A DNA stretch of 38,908 nt from Thermoproteota archaeon (GTDB lineage Archaea > Asgardarchaeota > Jordiarchaeia > Jordiarchaeales > Freyrarchaeaceae). The notes beneath the pieces were generated by a model, which was not told where the DNA came from, ran no database searches, and saw only the letters and a list, made by a program, of their open reading frames with translations. Made by a program: the position numbers and the translations under genes. Below are positions 1 through 9,921 of this stretch, one piece after another (position 1 is the stretch's first letter; each line of letters starts with the position of its first letter). Where the stretch lies: contig JAPDJY010000084.1 in NCBI GenBank assembly GCA_029258835.1, positions 1 through 38,908 on the forward strand. The letters are read 5' to 3'.

Positions 1-405
1 ATAAAGCGTTTTCACCCCGATTCTCAACGCTATGTAGCCTAGTGTCTGGATCAGGTTTAAACCAAGCCCTTTCCCCTGCCACTCGTCTGAGACGACTATT
101 CCTATTTCAGCTCTCCCCGTGCCCTTATCAAGGGAGAAGCGTGCTTCTCCAACCAGCTCCTGCTTCTCCGTGAACGCGCCTAAAGCAATGTTATCCTCGA
201 AGTTAACGTTTGCAAGCCCCTCCAAAATCCAGTCTGAGGACGGCCTATAATTGAGAAATCTAAGGTAGTTGGTTTCGACGGAGAGGGATCCGTAAAATCT
301 TAAGAGTTCGCTTGCATCCGCAGGGGTTAAAGACCTTATCAGAACCCTGGACCCGTCCCTTAACGTTACCCTCCGCTGGAAGCACTGGATCTCCGACGGA
401 CGCAA
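1..405 (-). CDS. GNAT-family N-acetyltransferase (Pat-like protein acetyltransferase domain), 3' end runs off the window
   Basis: Not in the ORF track. Manual translation from TTG at 405 (GGTGG RBS upstream): MRPSEIQCFQRRVTLRDGSRVLIRSLTPADASELLRFYGSLSVETNYLRF...AEIGIVVSDEWQGKGLG; the latter is the acetyl-CoA-binding motif A (QxxGxG). Confidence 0.88.
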   Translation of the reverse strand, partial: MRPSEIQCFQRRVTLRDGSRVLIRSLTPADASELLRFYGSLSVETNYLRFLNYRPSSDWILEGLANVNFEDNIALGAFTEKQELVGEARFSLDKGTGRAEIGIVVSDEWQGKGLGLNLIQTLGYIALRIGVKTLY

Positions 406-427
406 GCAACCACCATCTTCTTAAATT

Positions 428-1063
428 TTATCCTCCTCCGGCTTCTGCCCTGCGGAGGATCGCACTTATAATCTCCTTATCACCCCACGTTAAAGCTAGG
501 TTAAGTGCCAAGTCTGATATTTTATCGGTGAGCTCAGCTGTCGCCTTAATAAGCTTCTCCTTAACTTCAGCCTCCCCGACCTCATCGACTATTTTGAGAA
601 CTCCGCTAAGGGCGTCATATACGGCTTTAAAGCTCTCATACACTTCACTTGGAAACTTCTTTGGGCCGACAACTAGCCCGTTGATTTGGTCGTAGAGCTC
701 CCTAGCAATACTGTGAGAGTCCACTCCCTTCTTAAGCTTCTCAATCCCCCTGTTAAGAACCTCTTCCAGCTCGTCCTTAAGTTGCCATACGAGCCCCCCA
801 TCGTCCGAGTCGAACAATGCTAGGAGAGCATAGTTTACGTTGTTCTCGCAGAACCTAACATATGCGAGTTTGCCGAGCTCCCCGTAAACCTTCTGGTTAT
901 TCTCCTCTGTTATCTCCCTTGAAAAGATGCTCATCCAGACGTCGAGCGAAATGTCCCACATTTTATCTCCAGGTATAATTCCTTCCGGGAAAACCGCCTC
1001 AACCACCGGGCCCAGCCGGTAATCGAAACTCACCACCGCAACCCCTCTAAACAACCCATACAC
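428..1063 (-). CDS. Putative uDENN/longin-like domain protein with helical C-terminal extension
   Basis: N-terminal VAVVSFDYRLGPVVEAVFP fits the hydrophobic-strand-FDxxxGP pattern of uDENN/longin domains (NPRL2, C9orf72, AVL9 type), followed by a helix, strands ending NYALLALFD, and a long helix. Confidence 0.55.
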   Translation of the reverse strand: MYGLFRGVAVVSFDYRLGPVVEAVFPEGIIPGDKMWDISLDVWMSIFSREITEENNQKVYGELGKLAYVRFCENNVNYALLALFDSDDGGLVWQLKDELEEVLNRGIEKLKKGVDSHSIARELYDQINGLVVGPKKFPSEVYESFKAVYDALSGVLKIVDEVGEAEVKEKLIKATAELTDKISDLALNLALTWGDKEIISAILRRAEAGGG

Positions 1064-1086
1064 CTCTTCCAGCCAAGTTTAGCAAA

Positions 1087-2514
1087 CTAGTAAATGTCTA
1101 AATCCTTAACTTCGATCCCTCCCTCTTTGTACTCGATCCTCCTAATTTTATCATCATGAGCTTTACCCTTCATTTTAAGGGTGCAGATCCTCCTGTCCAT
1201 GCTCCCCCTCTCCCTTTCAACCCACATGGCAATCACGTTGTCCACTACCTTCGCCACCTCGTTATCCATGCCCTTCGTTAAGTCTACCGAAGCACTCATC
1301 ATCACAGTTGCCCCCTTACTCTTGAAGAATGAAATCATGTCGTTAAGCAGCCTCACGTACTCTCCCCTTGGAAGCCAGTCCATGATTGATATCTCATCTA
1401 TCACAACCCTGTCAGGACGGTGTGCCTCGTAAGCCTCCTTTAAAGCCAGATAGTTCCGTCCGGGAGTGTTTCTAGAAGGGTCTATGTAAACTATCCGTAA
1501 CCCCTTCTTCTCCAATTCTTCTACATCATGGCCTAGGTCGCTGAAAAACCTTCTCACCTCGTCTACAGCATCCCTGTACGTCACATATAGAACCCTCTCC
1601 CCGTTAAGTACGCCTGAAACGGCAAACTCGGCTAAAATTACCTTCTTACCTGTTCCTACTGGTCCGGAGATAAGCGTAATGGTTCCTCTTTTGACTCCGC
1701 CCATGAGTATTTTCCTGTCGAAGTCCGGAACCCCTATGCCGACGTCTCCGTCTAACTTCACCGCCGCGAGGCTTCTCACAGGGGTATGCATGACTATTCC
1801 CCTATCGGTTATAACGTACTCCACCTTCGAATAAGTTGTTCGACGCCCCCTCACCTTCTCCACTCTTAAAAACCTCTGAGTAACTTCACCCAGCCTTTGC
1901 GCCTCCAAGACTAGCACTGCGTCAGCCATGAAGCTTACCTCACTATTCACACCATTAGGGCTCTCCGGGATCACGTCCCCTATCAGCAGCCCGGTAATCT
2001 TGTTAATTTTACATATGCCGATAATCGTTGCCGTTATGAACGCCCTCAACTCACCTGGGTCTATTATCCTCTCTATGGCTGTCAGCGAATCCACAACCAT
2101 CCTCTTAAAGTCGATTGCAGATAACTCCTCCAAAATATGGGAGAAAACAAGGTCTAAAGCTCTCCTATCCAGAACGTTAAGTGCGTCAATAAATCTGAAT
2201 TTCCCCTCCTTCTCGAGACGCGAAAAATCCATCCCAAGCCTTAGCATGTTCCGGAAAAAATCAGACTTGCTCTCACTAAAACTAATATAAATCCCAACTT
2301 CATTACATTTTACCACTCCGTTGTATATGAACTGTGCTGCAAGAATAGTCTTACCGGATCCATGCGGCCCAGCTAGCAGAATCACGCTTCCCTCATCAAA
2401 TCCTCCTCCTAAAAGTTCGTCCAATCCCTCGATTCCAGTCTTAACCAGCCTAACAGGGCCTTCACCAGTCCAGGGTGGACCATTAGGCTCATTGCTAGCT
2501 TCCTCCATTCCCAC
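1087..2514 (-). CDS. Two-domain KaiC/RAD55-like ATPase, C-terminal domain degenerate
   Basis: KTGIEGLDELLGGG, Walker A GPHGSGKT, Walker B MVVDS, EKVRG. Second domain has GPVGTGKK, TYRD in place of the usual FEE/YEE, and KMKG. Confidence 0.9.
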   Translation of the reverse strand: MGMEEASNEPNGPPWTGEGPVRLVKTGIEGLDELLGGGFDEGSVILLAGPHGSGKTILAAQFIYNGVVKCNEVGIYISFSESKSDFFRNMLRLGMDFSRLEKEGKFRFIDALNVLDRRALDLVFSHILEELSAIDFKRMVVDSLTAIERIIDPGELRAFITATIIGICKINKITGLLIGDVIPESPNGVNSEVSFMADAVLVLEAQRLGEVTQRFLRVEKVRGRRTTYSKVEYVITDRGIVMHTPVRSLAAVKLDGDVGIGVPDFDRKILMGGVKRGTITLISGPVGTGKKVILAEFAVSGVLNGERVLYVTYRDAVDEVRRFFSDLGHDVEELEKKGLRIVYIDPSRNTPGRNYLALKEAYEAHRPDRVVIDEISIMDWLPRGEYVRLLNDMISFFKSKGATVMMSASVDLTKGMDNEVAKVVDNVIAMWVERERGSMDRRICTLKMKGKAHDDKIRRIEYKEGGIEVKDLDIY

Positions 2515-2614
2515 CTCACCAGCTACAACTTATTTTGCGATGAAGGTTATCACTCCTTCTTCTCCTTTATCTCTTTCTTCAGCATTAATTTCCATCATGA
2601 CATTTTACACCTTT

Positions 2615-3340
2615 CTACTCAACTTCTATTCCTTTTTCAGTTATTTTGAATACGTGCTCATTGAGGTCGTGCTTGGTCCCTCTCATTTTAACCACTTGTA
2701 TTTTTCTAACCCATTTCCCCTCTTCTTTCTCCATTGATAATTTTATGACTCCACTAGAGAGAAACTCCTCCACTCCATACCTACTAAGTGCTCCTCCACC
2801 CCCCGCTATCTCCGTTATTACAACACTAGTGCATTCGAACCTCTCCAGTATGGAGTATATCCTAAAGAGTAGCTCCCTCAGTGCCTCCGCCCCTTTAACT
2901 CTTAAAGCTAGCGCCGGCACAGAGTCCACAACAACCCTTCTCACGTTCTTCTCCCTTATTGCCTTACCCATAAGCATAACCAAGTCCATGTCTATGTTGG
3001 CTACACGGGGCTGAAACTCCCTATACTTCGTGCTAGTTGGCATACCCGCCTTCGTACTAGCGACGTCTATAACTACCAGCTTCCCCTCCTCCTCGAACTT
3101 CTTAAGATCCCAGCCGAACTGCTCCATTTCCCTGTAAAGCCTATCGGGCTCCTCCTCGCAAGTAATCAATAAGCCATTTTCCCCGTTCTTAAGGCCCTCT
3201 ACCAAGAACTGTATTGCAAACGTGGTTTTCCCTGTGCCAGTACCACCAGTAACGAGCACCGTTGCCCCCTTCGGGAATCCTCCACCAATAATCTCGTCAA
3301 ACCTTTCAATCCCTGTCTTCACTCTCTCCAAGCGCCGCAT
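2615..3340 (-). CDS. Single-domain KaiC/RAD55-like ATPase
   Basis: KTGIERFDEIIGGGFP, GGTGTGKT, TCEEE, VVVDS, YGVEEFLSSGVI, KMRGTKH. Confidence 0.92.
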   Translation of the reverse strand: MRRLERVKTGIERFDEIIGGGFPKGATVLVTGGTGTGKTTFAIQFLVEGLKNGENGLLITCEEEPDRLYREMEQFGWDLKKFEEEGKLVVIDVASTKAGMPTSTKYREFQPRVANIDMDLVMLMGKAIREKNVRRVVVDSVPALALRVKGAEALRELLFRIYSILERFECTSVVITEIAGGGGALSRYGVEEFLSSGVIKLSMEKEEGKWVRKIQVVKMRGTKHDLNEHVFKITEKGIEVE

Positions 3341-3521
3341 CCCCCTCTACAGCCTTTAAAGCCCGTGCTTCCCATTCCTATTAACCCCTTTAACACTATT
3401 AATTCCTTTTTGAAGAACTAATAAAATGTTTCGTTACACCCGTTAACAAACGTAATTATTTTCCCTCCTTTAGGAAAATCTAATGGGAATTCGGTGGAAA
3501 CATTGCCTACTTGCATGAAGG

Positions 3522-3890
3522 TTAGTAAAGTTTCTTCTCCGCTTCCGATGCAACCTTCACCCATATTTCTTTAAGTTTCTGCTTGGCTTCTTCGCTTTCT
3601 TCCCTTAGAAGTGTTAACAGCTCACGGGGTGATACGTCCACGTTGTATTCCTCAACGAGCTTCGTGGCTAGCATGTAAATGAATACTTCAACTCCTCCTG
3701 AAAGAGTTTTTTCCAGCTCGGAGTAGAATGACGCTGGCTTACGTAAAGCAACCTCGTATGGGTCGTCTGCCAGTTTTTTCTTCAAGTGCAAGGTTATGAG
3801 CGAGTAGAAGAATGGGCTGATGTGAGAGCAAGCAACATCCTTAAACACGTTCTTGACAACTCTAGCTAGCTTTTTTTCCTCCTCCGCCAT
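3522..3890 (-). CDS. Small helical KaiC-associated protein (DUF3227-like, tentative)
   Basis: Likely start ATG 3890 (MAEEEKK), overlapping the upstream ATPase stop. DPYEVALRKPASFYSELEKTLSGG pattern, similar to ORF 7106-7510. Confidence 0.6.
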   Translation of the reverse strand: MAEEEKKLARVVKNVFKDVACSHISPFFYSLITLHLKKKLADDPYEVALRKPASFYSELEKTLSGGVEVFIYMLATKLVEEYNVDVSPRELLTLLREESEEAKQKLKEIWVKVASEAEKKLY

Positions 3891-5235
3891 AAACCCGTAT
3901 CCTCCCGTCTTCAAAGCTGAGCTCTTTAATTTCCACGCCATGAGGAGACCTTCTCTCCTTGAGAACCGTGATTTTCCTCTTCACGGTGTTCTTCTCCACT
4001 TCGAACCACAATGCTATGATGTTATCTACTATTGTGGCAATGGGCACATTCTCTTTAACGATGTCCTTTGCAATAGTTAGCATGGTGGTGGTTTTGTTAG
4101 CTTTGGAAAGAATCGTTAACCCTCTAATCATCTCGAAAAACTCTGCTTCAGAGTAAGCCTTCTCCAAGGTTGTTAAGCCATCCACCACTAGCCTGCTAGG
4201 TTTTTCCTCATCGAACAACCGCCTGAACATGTCAAAGTGGGCGCCCGGCGTCATCCTCCTCGGAGAGGCAGATATAACATGCACCTCCCCTTCAACACCC
4301 CTCTTAAACTCCCTGATAAGCGACTCAACTTGGCATGCTGGCTCCTCATAGCTGAGGAAAACCGCCTTCTCGCCTCTGCTAGCTCCAGAAATGCAGAACT
4401 GCATTGCCAGTAAACTTTTACCTGTGCCGCTAGGCCCGGCTACTAGGGTTACGGATCCCCTCTTTAACCCTCCATTAAGCATCTTATCGAGCTCATCCAC
4501 CCCAGTCTTCAACCTTTCATCCTCTACCGCACCAACCATAGATAGGTCTGGTGGGACGTAAACTCTAATTCCTCTCTTAGATATGATAAACTCGTAGCTT
4601 GCGTGCTCAACGTTCACCCCTCTCATCTTCTCGATCCTCAGAACCCTCTTAATCAGCCCCGTCTCCGTAGGTATAACCTTCAACATAATGACGGCATCGA
4701 CAATGAACTCTTCAACACCCCATCCAACCTGCTCGGCTCCGAATGGCACCTCTGCAATAAGCAGAGCGGTTAAATCGTTAACCTTTATGATCCTCGTGAG
4801 AACAGAGTGGAGAAACCCCCTGATCTCTCTTCGACCGAGAATGTTAGTAATAGCCGTTATTGAATCAAAAACTATCCTCCTCGCCTTGATCTGGGTCACA
4901 GCGTCCAAAACCTGCGATATAACAGCCTCAATAGCCTTCTCACTCCTCAGGTTCAACCCTTCAATAAACCTGAACATTCCCGCCTCTTCCAGCCCATCAA
5001 AGTTCAACCCTATATTCCTCATGTTCCTTAAAAACTCGTCTTTGAGCTCGATGAAGCTCACGTACACGCCCGGCTCACCAAACCTGATGCCGTTGAGGAT
5101 AAACTCGGCCCCAAAGGTCGTCTTCCCCGAACCAGGATTTCCTGCCAACAAGACGACACTGTTCTTAGCAAACCCTCCACCAGTTATCTCATCAAAACCA
5201 ACAATACCAGTCCTAACACGCTCCAACACTGCCAC
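3862..5235 (-). CDS. Two-domain KaiC/RAD55-like ATPase
   Basis: Two RecA-type domains: GNPGSGKT/IVFDS/EKMRG and GPSGTGKS/SYEE/LVVDG/KERRS. Confidence 0.92.
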   Translation of the reverse strand: MAVLERVRTGIVGFDEITGGGFAKNSVVLLAGNPGSGKTTFGAEFILNGIRFGEPGVYVSFIELKDEFLRNMRNIGLNFDGLEEAGMFRFIEGLNLRSEKAIEAVISQVLDAVTQIKARRIVFDSITAITNILGRREIRGFLHSVLTRIIKVNDLTALLIAEVPFGAEQVGWGVEEFIVDAVIMLKVIPTETGLIKRVLRIEKMRGVNVEHASYEFIISKRGIRVYVPPDLSMVGAVEDERLKTGVDELDKMLNGGLKRGSVTLVAGPSGTGKSLLAMQFCISGASRGEKAVFLSYEEPACQVESLIREFKRGVEGEVHVISASPRRMTPGAHFDMFRRLFDEEKPSRLVVDGLTTLEKAYSEAEFFEMIRGLTILSKANKTTTMLTIAKDIVKENVPIATIVDNIIALWFEVEKNTVKRKITVLKERRSPHGVEIKELSFEDGRIRVYGGGGKKAS

Positions 5236-5283
5236 TCATCCTCATACAACGCTCATTATCCATTATTCATCATTACATTCTTC

Positions 5284-5327
5284 TTTAACGTTTTTTAAAC
5301 GTTTTTTAAACGTTAGTTAAACACTAA
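5284..5327. repeat. Four imperfect 11-bp tandem repeats (TTAAACGTTTT), three containing the palindrome AACGTT, upstream of the KaiC cluster
   Basis: tttaacgtttt/ttaaacgtttt/ttaaacgttag/ttaaacactaa; conserved C at 5289, 5300, 5311 and 5322. Confidence 0.7.
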
Positions 5328-5477
5328 ATTAAAAATATCTGCTACACTAAGTCAAGTAGTAGGACTTTGTAAAACAGATACTTAATAGTCCTTCGATTAC
5401 AAAACTTTGAATGTAGAATTCTAAACACGGTTTAAATTTCCTTAAATTTCCGTTAAAGTTGCAATCCTCAATTTCTT

Positions 5478-6359
5478 TTAAGGTTTACAGGTTTTCTCTG
5501 CTAATTTTTCTGCTAACTGTAAGAGTTGCTTCATTGCCGCCGTCCCGTCTGCTTTCCTTAAGCTTATTCGTCCTTCAGATGAAACATTAAACTCATCCGT
5601 TTCTATTTCCAACAATGGTCCTGCAGCCCAGAAGTTCAGCTCCTGCCGCGACCTAAGCTTTTCCACACCTTTAAGGATGTCGTCTCCTTCAAGGACGACT
5701 CTACTCAAGCCTTTAACTCCTGTTATTTGCCCGTCAAGAAGAACAACTGCCCTCTTAACTTTACCTTCCTCCGCCAGCTCCCTTAGTATAAACGGCGGAA
5801 TCATTAATGGCTCAATGCTTACGCCTAAGGCGTCAGAGATCATTTTAACCACCATTTCCGCCCTACCCGCCTCCTCTACGAGTAGTAAACCATTGCTCTT
5901 TACTAAACACTTCACATGGTCTGTGAACTGCTCCGCCCTAATTCCCATCCATCCCTTCACCAATCCATCCTCTCTCCTATACCTATAGAAGACGTAAAGC
6001 AACCCCTTCTCGACTCTTAACACTCTAAAGTAGCATGTTTCCTCTTTCACCTTGCTGAGAATCCTGTTAAGCCTCTTTTCTAAAATGCTAGGTGTAATCC
6101 TCTCTAAAGGGGGAAACCTGTAAATTCTCCAATAGGTAAATGGAAGCTTCTCTGCAAAATCTGCAAGGGCTAGAAGCTCCTCCAACCTTACAGGTGAAAG
6201 CCCCGCCTTAAGCATCACCTTAACGGCGTCCCTCTTACTTTTAACATCCCTCACGCTAACTTTCCAACTGCTCATAACCCTCTTAAGATCATTTAAGTCT
6301 ATGCGTTCCACCAGAAGCTCAAGCACCCTCCGGCTAACCTTCATGCCTAACCCATCCAC
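5478..6359 (-). CDS. Hypothetical protein, candidate CENP-N/Chl4-like fold
   Basis: 293-aa ORF 27 bp downstream of yjbQ. Helical N-domain (IDLNDLKRVMSSW...KRDAVKVML...LALAD), YWRIYRF strand, alpha/beta core and C-terminal VVLEGDDILKGVEKL motif. Functional call rests on by-eye comparison only. Confidence 0.55.
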   Translation of the reverse strand: MDGLGMKVSRRVLELLVERIDLNDLKRVMSSWKVSVRDVKSKRDAVKVMLKAGLSPVRLEELLALADFAEKLPFTYWRIYRFPPLERITPSILEKRLNRILSKVKEETCYFRVLRVEKGLLYVFYRYRREDGLVKGWMGIRAEQFTDHVKCLVKSNGLLLVEEAGRAEMVVKMISDALGVSIEPLMIPPFILRELAEEGKVKRAVVLLDGQITGVKGLSRVVLEGDDILKGVEKLRSRQELNFWAAGPLLEIETDEFNVSSEGRISLRKADGTAAMKQLLQLAEKLAEKTCKP

Positions 6360-6386
6360 CCTTCACCCTTTAACCCCCCTCAAAAC

Positions 6387-6815
6387 TCACTCCCCAATTA
6401 TTTGGAGTATAAGCTCCCTACTTCTAGGTCTAACGTCTAGCTCCACGAACACTATCTGCTGCCATGTTCCAAGCTCAAGCCTCCCATCGTTAAACGGAAC
6501 CGTAAGGCTTGGACCTATAAGCGCAGCCCTACAGTGACTGTGCCCATTCCAATCGTGCCACCGCAAATGATGCTCGTATTCCTCGCCCTTAGGAGCAACC
6601 CTTTCAAGTATTCTAGGAAAATCCTTCAGAAGCCCCGGCTCATACTCTATGGTAGTTACTGCCCCCGTAGACCCCGGGACAAAGACCGTTACGATGCCGC
6701 TTTTCAACCCCGACTCTTCAACAGCCCTCTGAACTAACCGTGTCACGTCAACCATGTGAACTTCCCCATTCGTCGAAAACCTCACACGCTTAGATACAAC
6801 AACCACCTTCAACAC
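6387..6815 (-). CDS. yjbQ: YjbQ/UPF0047 family protein (secondary thiamine-phosphate synthase family)
   Basis: VFVPGSTGAVTTIEYEPGL, YEHH, NGHSHCRAALIGPS, LELGTWQQIVFVELD. Confidence 0.93.
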   Translation of the reverse strand: MLKVVVVSKRVRFSTNGEVHMVDVTRLVQRAVEESGLKSGIVTVFVPGSTGAVTTIEYEPGLLKDFPRILERVAPKGEEYEHHLRWHDWNGHSHCRAALIGPSLTVPFNDGRLELGTWQQIVFVELDVRPRSRELILQIIGE

Positions 6816-7105
6816 CCCGAACGCTTAGAAAAATTCCATCATAAACAACTTATTAAACCATTTATTCGTCTTTTGAATTCCCCTGAAAAGCCCTAACCGC
6901 CTACACCCCTCTCGACTTAAAATTATTAATTTTTCAACATGCTTCCATTTTTTCCTTTAATTTTCACCTTTCAATCCATTTTTTACATTTTTTATTTTTT
7001 ATTGCCGTTTTTTAGAATCAATACTTAAATTTTTACACCACTTACTCAGAAAATTTATATATACTATTTTCTACTTAATTTTTAGCTGTGTGGTGGGGGG
7101 ATTAT

Positions 7106-7510
7106 GTGGAAACATTAGAGTATGCAAAAATTATCGCAGATAAAATAAAGGAATCTTCACGGTTTTTTCAACCAAAAATATGCGGTTTTAAATATACTCT
7201 TAAGCTTCTAAAGATGGAGCTTAACGTTGAAACGCTAGACGAGGTTGTATTACGTTTCCTTGAAAAGCCGAGGGAATCATATAATTGCCTTGTTAAGGTG
7301 TTGGGGGGATTTGAGTGCTCCGCTGCGGTTAACATAATCACGATAATAGGAACCCTAGCTAGAGTATATGGCTTCCGTAGGGTGGATGCACTTACAGTTC
7401 TCAACGCGATTAAAAGGAACGACGCTAAAGCCCTCATAAAATACGCCTTAACGTTTAAGGAAAAGGTAGCATCCACCGTTATCTCTCAAAGCAGCCAATA
7501 CCATCTTTAA
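7106..7510 (+). CDS. Hypothetical helical protein, probable paralogue of 3522-3890
   Basis: GTG start after a GGTGGGG RBS (the track starts at 7088). LDEVVLRFLEKPRESYNCLVKVLGG aligns with DPYEVALRKPASFYSELEKTLSGG. Confidence 0.55.
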   Translation: METLEYAKIIADKIKESSRFFQPKICGFKYTLKLLKMELNVETLDEVVLRFLEKPRESYNCLVKVLGGFECSAAVNIITIIGTLARVYGFRRVDALTVLNAIKRNDAKALIKYALTFKEKVASTVISQSSQYHL

Positions 7511-7573: not shown

Positions 7574-8248
7574 CTACTTAATTGTTAGCTTTATAGGCTC
7601 GGTCTGGAACATTGTTAAACCTTCTTTGTACTTAAAGAACTGCGTTTCCCCTCTTAGAAGAATGTTTCCTTTAAAGTCTTCTATGTTTAACGTGAACTCT
7701 TCGGTTATCTCCATCCCGGGATCCACTTTAAACACGTCTTCCTCCTCTGTGTCGTCTCCTTCTATAAGGAGCAGGTCTTCATCGTTAAGGTCTGTTACTC
7801 TAACCTTAAACGGTGTATTCTTTTTCACCACTATGTTAACGGTTTCACTCGTGTTATTTTTCAGGGAGAGCCTTATTGGTATAGTGACCGGTCCATCATA
7901 AATCGTTCCATTTGGAAGTTCTAGGGAGAACCTTATCTCCTCGTCGCCGTATTCTACCACCGCTGTTTCCTTTTCAGCCTCCTCGTCCTGGACGAAGAAA
8001 ACCGTAACGTTTCGCTCCTTTTCTAAAGCTTCTAACACCTCCTCGAAAAAACTCTTATACGGTACAACATCCCTGCTTCCAGCTACAACTACGTCAATCA
8101 AGTATGGTGGTGTTTCAAAGTAAAATGCGTTCTCCTCGTCACCCAACCTGTAATGTCGTATCTTAAACCCGTATGACTTCACTATCCTGCATATTTCAGA
8201 GTCAGGGGAAAGATTTGGACCAGAAATCTTCAACATCATCTTATCCAC
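7574..8248 (-). CDS. Acidic two-domain hypothetical protein; C-terminal Ig-like (BsuPI-like) beta sandwich
   Basis: C-half IRLSLKNNTSETVNIV...PFKVRVTDLNDE...VDPGMEITEEFT is a beta-sandwich pattern; the N-half alternates strands and helices. Confidence 0.55.
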   Translation of the reverse strand: MDKMMLKISGPNLSPDSEICRIVKSYGFKIRHYRLGDEENAFYFETPPYLIDVVVAGSRDVVPYKSFFEEVLEALEKERNVTVFFVQDEEAEKETAVVEYGDEEIRFSLELPNGTIYDGPVTIPIRLSLKNNTSETVNIVVKKNTPFKVRVTDLNDEDLLLIEGDDTEEEDVFKVDPGMEITEEFTLNIEDFKGNILLRGETQFFKYKEGLTMFQTEPIKLTIK

Positions 8249-8826
8249 GTCCAGAACCTAAAGGCTGTGTATATCCTAAGTTAAAGCCCACCTTAGATAT
8301 CCTTTCTGATAAATTATTTCAGGGAAAGCAGATCAACCATGAACGCTTGAAAAGCTGAAAACCGTCATTTAATAAACACTACATTCACTGCAATGTTTCC
8401 CTATAATTGATACATCCGATTGTTAAAAGAGAGATTAACTGCGAGACATCTCTCAAGGGAGTGGAAGAAGATCTCTAGGTAACTGTGATGTACCTACTAC
8501 TTTTGCTGGATGTAAAAACCTAAAGGCCAAAGGGTATTAGAGTATGCTGGAGGGATGTAACACGTTAAATTTAGCTCACCTCTCTGCCGACGTGTTGCTG
8601 GTGTCCATTAACGGGCACCCTAACGGAATGAGGCCTTTAACTAAGGGGATTTAAAATTATTTAAAATGTAATTGTAGACTTGCTGGGTGAGAATAAGATA
8701 CTAAAACACATACTAAAACACTCTTACCTCCATCTTACTGCGACGATTAGGAGTAACACTTTTTCGTAGGAGAAGCTTCTCTTTCACCTGTTAATGATGG
8801 GTGGAGTTTGACGGGTGGCGAATTAA

Positions 8827-9921
8827 ATGAAGGACAGCGTATTGCTATTCTTCGCCGACTGTGCTGTTTCAGCGTCAATAGTGGTAACCCCTCTTTTCGC
8901 TAAGGGTCTTGGAGCATCAGACTTTGATCTAGGATTAATAGGTGCCACGTACGGTTTAGCCCTTCTTTTCTCATCTTACGTCTTCGGGTGGGCTGCAGAC
9001 GTTTTCGGAAGAGGAAGGCTTCTTAAAGTTGGCCTTGCCATAGCAGTTTTCATATTCCCCCTCCATGCATTCTCGTTTAACCCTCTCTGCCTTATCGCTC
9101 TAAGAGGATTAGCTGGGTTCTGCGCTGGAATGTATCCTCCAGCAGTGGCGGCGCACGCCTACGAGGCCCGTGGCCGTTTAGGAAGGCTGATATCCTTCGG
9201 AGCGCTCGGATGGGGGGTTGGAAGCCTCCTCATATCCTTCATACCTCTCTACCGTGACGTGTTCCTGATCTGCGGCGCTCTTTTCCTCGCAAGCTTCCTG
9301 ATATCGTTAAAACTGGAAATAAAGGATGTTAGGCTGGATGTGCCACTGTTTCCAAGAGACGTAATAAAGCGGGGACTCCCAGTCTACCTATCATTTTTCC
9401 TGAGGCATATGGGGGCTAACGCCATCTGGGCTATATTCCCTCTCTTCCTTAAAGAAATCGGTGCAAACGACTTTTGGATAGGCGTAACCTACGCAACCAA
9501 CACATTCACTCAGTTTCTCATAATGCCATTGGTTGACAGGTTTAAGAGTAGCCGCCTCGTCGCATGCGGACTCGCCTTCTCCACCGCGACGTTTCTAGCC
9601 TACAGCTTAGCCGAGAATTACCTACAAATAGTTCCTGTTCAGCTTCTCCTCGCATGCTCCTGGTCATTTCTGTACGTTGGAGCCCTAACCTACGTTGCTG
9701 AGAGAGGGGAGGAGAGGGCTACGTCAATAGGCTTCCTGGGAACGGTTAGGGGGCTAGCGGTAACCATAGGTCCCTTCTTCGGCGGCGCCATCAGCCAGCT
9801 CTACGGCTACAGGTCAACCATGATTTTCGCGGTTGCAGGGAGCACTTCGGGACTCGCACTTTTTATGGGTTACCTTGCCCGAAGAAAGCGTTTTGAAAAT
9901 CGTGCAACCCATCAGCCCTAG
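8827..9921 (+). CDS. Major facilitator superfamily transporter
   Basis: About 12 hydrophobic segments; motif A GWAADVFGRG; RGLAG in TM4; repeat motif LVDRFKS. Confidence 0.92.
   Translation: MKDSVLLFFADCAVSASIVVTPLFAKGLGASDFDLGLIGATYGLALLFSSYVFGWAADVFGRGRLLKVGLAIAVFIFPLHAFSFNPLCLIALRGLAGFCAGMYPPAVAAHAYEARGRLGRLISFGALGWGVGSLLISFIPLYRDVFLICGALFLASFLISLKLEIKDVRLDVPLFPRDVIKRGLPVYLSFFLRHMGANAIWAIFPLFLKEIGANDFWIGVTYATNTFTQFLIMPLVDRFKSSRLVACGLAFSTATFLAYSLAENYLQIVPVQLLLACSWSFLYVGALTYVAERGEERATSIGFLGTVRGLAVTIGPFFGGAISQLYGYRSTMIFAVAGSTSGLALFMGYLARRKRFENRATHQP

Follow-up and report, generated by a model that had tools for sequence, protein, structure and literature searches.

The first 5,235 nucleotides of the window, which is the whole of contig C23 (38,908 nucleotides) of a Jordarchaeia metagenome-assembled genome (MAG; 2.72 Mb in 91 contigs, estimated completeness 94.7%), hold two modules built on KaiC-family ATPases and lying side by side. 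The names carried by close homologues put the genome in Jordarchaeales, near Candidatus Freyrarchaeum guaymaensis. Module B (1-3340, continuing on contig C34) is a five-gene operon encoding a single-domain KaiC, a double-domain KaiC, a longin protein (longin A), a Pat-type GNAT acetyltransferase and a second longin (longin B). Module A (3522-5235), a double KaiC followed by a small helical protein, is separate from module B and is not part of the longin system. We propose, with moderate confidence, that module B is a KaiC-ring switch in which a heterodimer of longin paralogues would act as read-out or adaptor, and to which Pat-type acetylation would add a layer specific to Jordarchaeia.

All six open reading frames (ORFs) of 1-5235 lie on the minus strand, co-oriented and at the coordinates already given by a first-pass annotation of this DNA. 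Domains were assigned with Pfam and NCBIfam models judged against their own cut-offs. The stretch and its continuation contain:

3862-5235, minus strand: P0001, a double KaiC of 457 residues; two PF06745 matches, E 6.9e-88.
3522-3890 (ORF 3522-3941), minus strand: P0002, a small helical protein of 122 residues counted from ATG 3890, with GGAGG 8 nt before the ATG.
3341-3521, minus strand: AT-rich intergenic region with the TATA-like TTTTATTAG, the likely promoter of module B, dividing modules A and B.
2615-3340, minus strand: P0003, a single KaiC of 241 residues; one PF06745 match, E 6.6e-72.
1087-2514, minus strand: P0004, a double KaiC of 475 residues, likely start ATG 2508; two PF06745 matches, E 7e-82.
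428-1063, minus strand, probable start TTG 1054: P0005, longin A, 211 residues; start set by homologues, fold by AlphaFold2 (AF2).
1-405, minus strand: GNAT fragment, the N-terminal 135 of about 171 residues, cut by the contig end; Pfam Acetyltransf_3 and Acetyltransf_1.
Contig C34, locus L006:3-488: tail of longin B (last 161 residues), the continuation of the operon beyond the window.

The gaps measure 181 bp before P0003, 100 bp between P0003 and P0004, 23 bp between P0004 and P0005 (32 bp if translation starts at TTG 1054) and 22 bp between P0005 and the GNAT gene, the two short spacings being those that the first-pass annotation had reported. The operon leaves C23 inside the GNAT gene and, after a gap of roughly 0.4 kb, resumes at the start of C34 with the tail of longin B, after which come a small longin, a Roadblock gene and a folliculin-like gene. 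In module A, P0002 begins inside P0001, the two genes sharing 29 nt at the end of P0001.

The linkage between KaiC and longins was followed across Asgard families, of which f1 is the window's own and f4, f6, f20 and f24 are others. Within f1, the core of single KaiC, double KaiC, longin A, GNAT and longin B is kept in G113-G115, the three of the four sister-genus genomes (G112-G115) in which the locus is complete; the contig of G112 ends just past longin B and holds the downstream genes only. Public Jordarchaeales contigs keep the same core at about 68% protein identity. The full order in f1 is YjbQ, an uncharacterised 290-residue protein, single KaiC, double KaiC, longin A, GNAT (171 residues), longin B, small longin and Roadblock, the last on the opposite strand. 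All four f6 genomes carry a double KaiC and, about 20 bp further on, one longin, with a second longin divergent and often a third, shorter one; the arrangement is also present in two metagenome contigs whose protein cluster is named Baldrarchaeia. In f4, two of three genomes place a tandem pair of longins immediately next to a single KaiC. In gene order, strands, KaiC subtypes and flanking genes, f4 and f6 all differ from f1, and the gaps are 19-32 bp. With about a dozen KaiC genes in the 2.7 Mb of the window's own genome, the chance of direct KaiC adjacency is about 1-2% per gene; given this density and three families with unlike gene orders, the repeated adjacency of KaiC and longin genes is far beyond chance. 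Of the linkages suggested in the first-pass annotation, that of KaiC with longins is conserved across f1, f4 and f6; module A is absent from the site in the sister genus, and the GNAT was found only in f1.

The longin/uDENN-type fold that had been suggested for 428-1063 is borne out by structure prediction. With an alignment of 18 sequences, the AF2 model of P0005 has a predicted local distance difference test (pLDDT) score of 82.7, with values exceeding 88 for most of residues 1-130; a model built with seven close homologues only (pLDDT 45.6) was unusable. In the AF2 model, residues 1-135 form a longin domain of the order beta-beta-alpha-beta-beta-beta-alpha-alpha, and residues 136-211 form a three-helix tail whose structural matches are generic helical bundles only. 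No core DENN domain was found after the longin domain of P0005, nor any DENN Pfam match. The top structural match, in VIA-align and Foldseek, is the longin of a Lokiarchaeal Roadblock-Longin protein (8yqg; Z 14.9, root-mean-square deviation 2.4 Å over 128 residues, Foldseek probability 1.00), followed by Lst4 (Z 11.3), C9orf72-SMCR8 (11.1), GATOR1 (10.8), DENND1A (9.7) and FLCN-FNIP (9.3).

The sequence F13-D14-x3-G18-P19 is situated at the beta1-beta2 turn of P0005, with G18 and P19 starting strand beta2 (18-25), and in the longin family alignment the Gly is present in all 18 members and the Pro in 17. A GP motif at this position is specific to longins of the GTPase-activating protein (GAP) type and to one class of Asgard longins, and C9orf72 bears WD-x3-GP, with the same spacing as the F-D-x3-G-P of P0005 (PMC12290439). 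The family's longin domain lacks any conserved Arg, and with it a conserved arginine finger. In the beta4-beta5 loop, P0005 has CENNVN and its paralogues have no Arg, where the local folliculin-like protein has DRTARGGAR; this judgement is based on alignments, not on residue-level superposition. The GP pair at the beta1-beta2 turn, the lack of a conserved Arg and the three-helix tail lead us to class the P0005 family as GP-motif longins that have neither a catalytic finger nor a DENN module.

A word-based search with P0005 returned eight close relatives, the named ones from Jordarchaeales, and an exhaustive profile search among 1.84 billion representative proteins gave 13 matches, so that the family must be regarded as small. 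Longin B, which follows the GNAT in the relatives, is a paralogue of P0005 with 33% identity. Compared with PDB sequences, the longin-family profile found no longin, its matches being helical-repeat and designed proteins that align to the C-terminal tail only. The sole family match of P0005 in Pfam and NCBIfam, a weak one to Pfam EntA_Immun (23.3 bits, residues 98-141, helices alpha2-alpha3), was treated as a spurious helical match. In f20 (L026-L040), 80 of 135 genomes contain a stand-alone ORF of about 130 residues that weakly matches the longin part only (E 1e-4 to 1e-7).

The three KaiC-family ATPases named in the first-pass annotation are indeed members of the KaiC/RAD55 family, P0001, P0003 and P0004 scoring 294, 242 and 275 bits with PF06745, whose gathering score is 26.6 bits. 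The cut-offs of the circadian KaiC equivalogs NF006799 and TIGR02655 were missed (best 273.5, 194.9 and 243.8 against 408, and 175.6 against 546 bits). Motif states were taken from two alignments, one residue by residue to the solved KaiC 8zn5 and one of the domains with those of orthologues. P0003, whose orthologue in the relatives is 74% identical, has a complete catalytic set (GTGKT 32-40, EEE 62-64, Walker B D139 and KMRG 218-221). The N domains of the two double KaiCs keep Walker A and B and only one of the two Glu residues: P0001 combines GSGKT (32-40) with the one Glu of IE (60-65), and P0004 combines GSGKT and its Walker B with the one Glu of SE. The second, C-terminal domain of P0001 is complete, with GTGKS (267-275), an EE pair (297-298) and Walker B D352. 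At the positions of KaiC S431/T432 it has Ala400-Thr401, Thr401 taking the T432 position, and the homologues P0029 and P0031 have Ser-Thr there. The C domain of P0004 has the Walker A GTGKK, RD for the EE pair, KMKG for KMRG and Ala-Lys at the S431/T432 positions, and its RD is conserved in the orthologues. Because of GTGKK and RD, this domain is almost certainly a dead ATPase domain, as predicted from its motifs. On another contig of the genome (C32:3486-6500), three KaiC-domain matches stand in a row (3486-4064, 5172-5807 and 5865-6500), the frame around the middle one being open for 1044 residues; the three may belong to one large multi-KaiC protein or to a gene cluster.

The GNAT fragment matches Acetyltransf_3 and Acetyltransf_1 above the Pfam cut-offs and is 84% identical to a full-length orthologue of 171 residues. 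The nine PDB matches of this orthologue (E 1e-13 to 1e-5) are all Pat-type or protein acetyltransferases, the closest solved relatives including 4nxy, 4ava, 4orf, 9isq and 3f8k; the named relatives comprise Mycobacterium Pat/Rv0998, the GNAT domain of Streptomyces PatA, enterobacterial Pat and Sulfolobus Pat. The NCBIfam Pat equivalog gave 58.8-68.8 bits (E 3.9e-16 for the fragment) against a cut-off of 460, the match covering the GNAT part of the model only (131-269 of 317). It is a reasonable guess, judged from these relatives, that the GNAT carries out protein acetylation, which the first-pass annotation had named as an output of the system. The gene was found only in the window's own family, and the GNAT is therefore a local addition, not a general output.

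Module A requires separate treatment, as the first-pass annotation had united all three KaiCs in one system. This did not hold for P0001 and P0002. In G113-G115, which are all the sister-genus genomes with a complete locus, module A is absent between the 290-residue upstream gene (u289) and the single KaiC. The TATA-like element TTTTATTAG in the 181-bp spacer after P0002 aligns, as TTTTATTA[CG]TT, with the region 5' of the single KaiC in relatives that have no module A; the rest of the intergenic alignment is mostly uninformative. Homologous pairs are found in unrelated contexts, without longins or GNAT. P0001 shares 49% and 41% identity with its two closest non-self homologues, the cluster of the second carrying Thermoprotei/Thermoproteales names, and both are followed by a gene of 101-114 residues that aligns to P0002 at about 27% identity. 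In the tree, P0004 and its Jordarchaeales orthologues form a clade with 100/100 support, and P0001 lies outside it. A recent tandem duplication giving P0001 and P0004 was considered and rejected on this position and on their identity of 33%. The absence from the sister genus, the promoter-like region of its own, the homologous pairs elsewhere, the position of P0001 in the tree and the occurrence of P0002-like sequences beside KaiC in f24 together establish that module A is separate from module B. The module was possibly acquired laterally; no flanking repeats were found around it in a search for mobile-element footprints. A tandem repeat of ACGTTTAAAAA, with two full copies and one partial copy, is located at about 5283-5314 of the window (minus strand), 50-80 nt 5' of the start of P0001, and may be a TATA/BRE (B recognition element) region or an operator of module A.

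P0002 had no Pfam match at E <= 0.1 in the first Pfam scan and no NCBIfam family match. Against the Pfam model NitrOD5 (PF11537) it scores 15.7 bits (E 0.017), and the small genes after the P0001 relatives score 26.4-26.6 bits (E 7e-6), for a cut-off of 27 bits. We regard P0002 as a putative NitrOD5-like ('archaeal death-domain-like') small helical protein with a sub-cut-off match. Its database matches are to the 122-residue form only, from its own genome or near-identical copies, and the proteins that resemble it by Atlas features are small ones from TACK archaea, with NitrOD5 in one of their clusters. A sample of 400 Asgard genomes contained P0002-like sequences in f24 and, as three copies, in the window's own genome, and nowhere else. 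A second copy lies in the window at 7088-7510 (plus strand, 140 residues); it is weaker (E 4.7e-6 and 3.4e-8) and has no Pfam match. The third is on contig C37:13722-13961. In f24 (L064-L066), proteins of 248-261 residues contain a P0002-like domain and have one or two KaiC genes as immediate neighbours, an independent case of KaiC paired with a NitrOD5-like protein. Module A would be a self-contained pair of ATPase/autokinase and small effector with a promoter of its own, in which P0001 and P0002 may be translationally coupled, and it looks like the KaiC-plus-small-partner type that has already been outlined.

With module A set apart, a mechanism can be proposed for module B. We infer that its KaiC proteins assemble into ATP-driven rings and that longins A and B pair in the manner of eukaryotic longin heterodimers. 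Docking of the longin pair on a KaiC domain would depend on the nucleotide state of that domain, and the pair would serve as adaptor or read-out, with KaiC in the place of the small GTPase that eukaryotic longins bind. In Jordarchaeia, the GNAT could introduce an acetyl-CoA-dependent lysine modification into one of the components or into a recruited target. A complex prediction for P0004 and P0005, each supplied as an alignment, gave no verdict (score 0.00) and was counted neither for nor against binding. A bolder form of the hypothesis, which we advance only tentatively and hold to be doubtful, is that a C9orf72/FLCN-like longin heterodimer acts on a RecA-type KaiC ring, whose nucleotide state it reads or controls, and that in Jordarchaeia the switch is tuned by acetyl-CoA through the Pat-type GNAT. 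If this were true, GP-motif longins would be general regulators of P-loop NTPases, and GTPase specificity would have come later, in eukaryotes.

It can alternatively be hypothesised that the longin pair is a GAP, a guanine nucleotide exchange factor (GEF) or a platform for a small GTPase encoded elsewhere, KaiC acting upstream or in parallel and not as the direct partner. The closest fold matches of longin A are GTPase-regulating longins, the Ras superfamily is represented in the genome by a dozen genes or more, C34 carries another longin and a Roadblock gene after the operon, and the fusion of a KaiC-like domain to a GTPase domain among KaiC genes on contig C6 implies crosstalk between KaiC and GTPases in this organism. 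Nevertheless, neither C23 nor the retrieved portion of C34 contains a small GTPase gene, the beta4-beta5 loop has no conserved Arg, unlike the Arg-rich loop of the local folliculin-like protein, and the neighbour that remains constant across lineages is KaiC, not a GTPase. We consider this explanation unlikely.

The notion of a single six-gene system, in which all three KaiCs, P0002, the longin and the GNAT work together, draws on the proximity and common orientation of the genes and on the ability of KaiC paralogues to form mixed assemblies. It is improbable in our estimation: module A is missing where module B is kept in the sister-genus genomes with a complete locus, the 181-bp AT-rich region with its conserved TATA-like element stands between the modules, and pairs of the module A type occur without longins or GNAT. 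There is similarly little likelihood that the KaiC-longin neighbourhood is inherited synteny with no functional link. The whole 20-kb neighbourhood is syntenic within f1, and for this reason conservation in f1 alone carries little weight; the pairing recurs, however, in f4 and f6 with another order, other strands and KaiC subtypes, unrelated flanks and gaps of 19-32 bp.

Several observations weigh against the proposed KaiC-longin switch. The evidence is computational throughout, the MAG has an estimated contamination of 6%, and a contig break divides the GNAT from longin B. In hhalign, the longin family reached a probability below 1% with the folliculin-like and small longin families of the genome; as this profile-profile comparison is not significant, the assignment to a longin class rests on fold and a short motif. 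The KaiC subtype beside the longins varies by lineage, and the Baldrarchaeial KaiC has a very long branch and has partly lost its own Walker and Glu motifs. Since the subtype differs between lineages, the link may have arisen more than once, or may concern KaiC rings generally and not one partner. Within the fetched flanks of longin family members, no KaiC was found at G001, at G003 or at two G005 loci, and none lies within 1.5 kb of the longin relatives of about 130 residues in f20. Finally, the GNAT does not occur outside f1.

Upstream of the operon, a conserved protein of 293 residues (window 5478-6359, minus strand) is 48% identical in the sister genus and led to nameless clusters only in an Atlas look-up; in f1, this gene and a YjbQ/UPF0047 gene (window 6387-6815, minus strand) are always found upstream of the KaiC operon. 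Downstream, at L006 on C34, are a small protein at 1545-2069 with weak longin matches (Fuz_longin_1 and Clat_adaptor_s) and several paralogues in the genome, a Roadblock/LC7 gene at 2156-2539, and a folliculin-like protein of 380 residues at 8174-9316 with a GP motif and the Arg-rich DRTARGGAR loop; all three are syntenic within f1. On contig C6 (71300-77200), a 380-residue ORF joins a partial KaiC domain (75970-76422) to a Ras-type GTPase domain (75316-75765). It is flanked by KaiC genes at 76465-77157 and 74231-74875, and two small GTPase genes lie nearby at 72547-73023 and 71322-71801.

All of the component families are already known, and both the idea of KaiC as a hub and the GP-motif longins of Asgard archaea have been published; what is new from the window is the neighbouring module A and its demonstrated separateness from module B. 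The literature search retrieved no paper linking longins with KaiC, in a coverage that did not extend to the neighbourhood tables of the 2017 KaiC paper. Asgard longin and Roadblock proteins are counted among the eukaryotic signature proteins, and their partners, of which almost none are known, are taken to be small GTPases. For the KaiC paralogues of archaea, which have been proposed as signalling hubs, few partners have been tested, and the operon names testable ones. It would bear on the origin of the longin-based GTPase regulators of eukaryotes, and the division into two modules keeps the third KaiC, P0001, from being ascribed to the longin system.

At the level of known systems, module A resembles GvpD-GvpE of haloarchaeal gas-vesicle regulation, in which a KaiC-like ATPase controls a small helical activator. 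It likewise combines a KaiC-like ATPase with a small helical protein, GvpD is the name of a public protein almost identical to P0001, and Pfam GvpD_P-loop gives a weak match (29 bits). It differs in that the KaiC model scores ten times the GvpD model, in that the window has no gas-vesicle genes, and in that no similarity between P0002 and GvpE was detected. Archaeal KaiC/RAD55 ATPases have been proposed to be hubs of signal transduction (Makarova, Galperin and Koonin 2017, cited through PMC5847659), a scheme that includes live/dead KaiC pairs and KaiC with small 'death-domain-like' NitrOD partners; NitrOD5 is placed by PMC5847659 in the 'death-domain-like' family of the 2017 paper. The scheme is matched here by three PF06745 ATPases, one inactivated KaiC domain and the KaiC plus NitrOD5-like pair of module A; module B departs from it in having a longin pair as partner. 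The GNAT shares its domain with Pat-type enzymes, and is a stand-alone protein of 171 residues that lacks their regulatory domain, whether cyclic nucleotide (cNMP)-binding or similar to NDP-forming acyl-CoA synthetases. The 8yqg protein has an N-terminal Roadblock, whereas P0005 consists of a longin and a helical tail, with 12% sequence identity between the two. With the GAP longin complexes (C9orf72-SMCR8, FLCN-FNIP and GATOR1 NPRL2-NPRL3) and the FLCN/SMCR8-type longins of Asgard archaea, the operon has in common the longin fold, the GP pair of beta2, an aromatic-Asp preceding the GP as in C9orf72, and the occurrence of the longins as paralogous pairs. Compared with the eukaryotic GAP longins, P0005 has no conserved arginine finger and carries a three-helix tail in place of the DENN module, and its encoded neighbour belongs to the RecA-type ATPases and not to the Rag, Arf or Rab GTPases.

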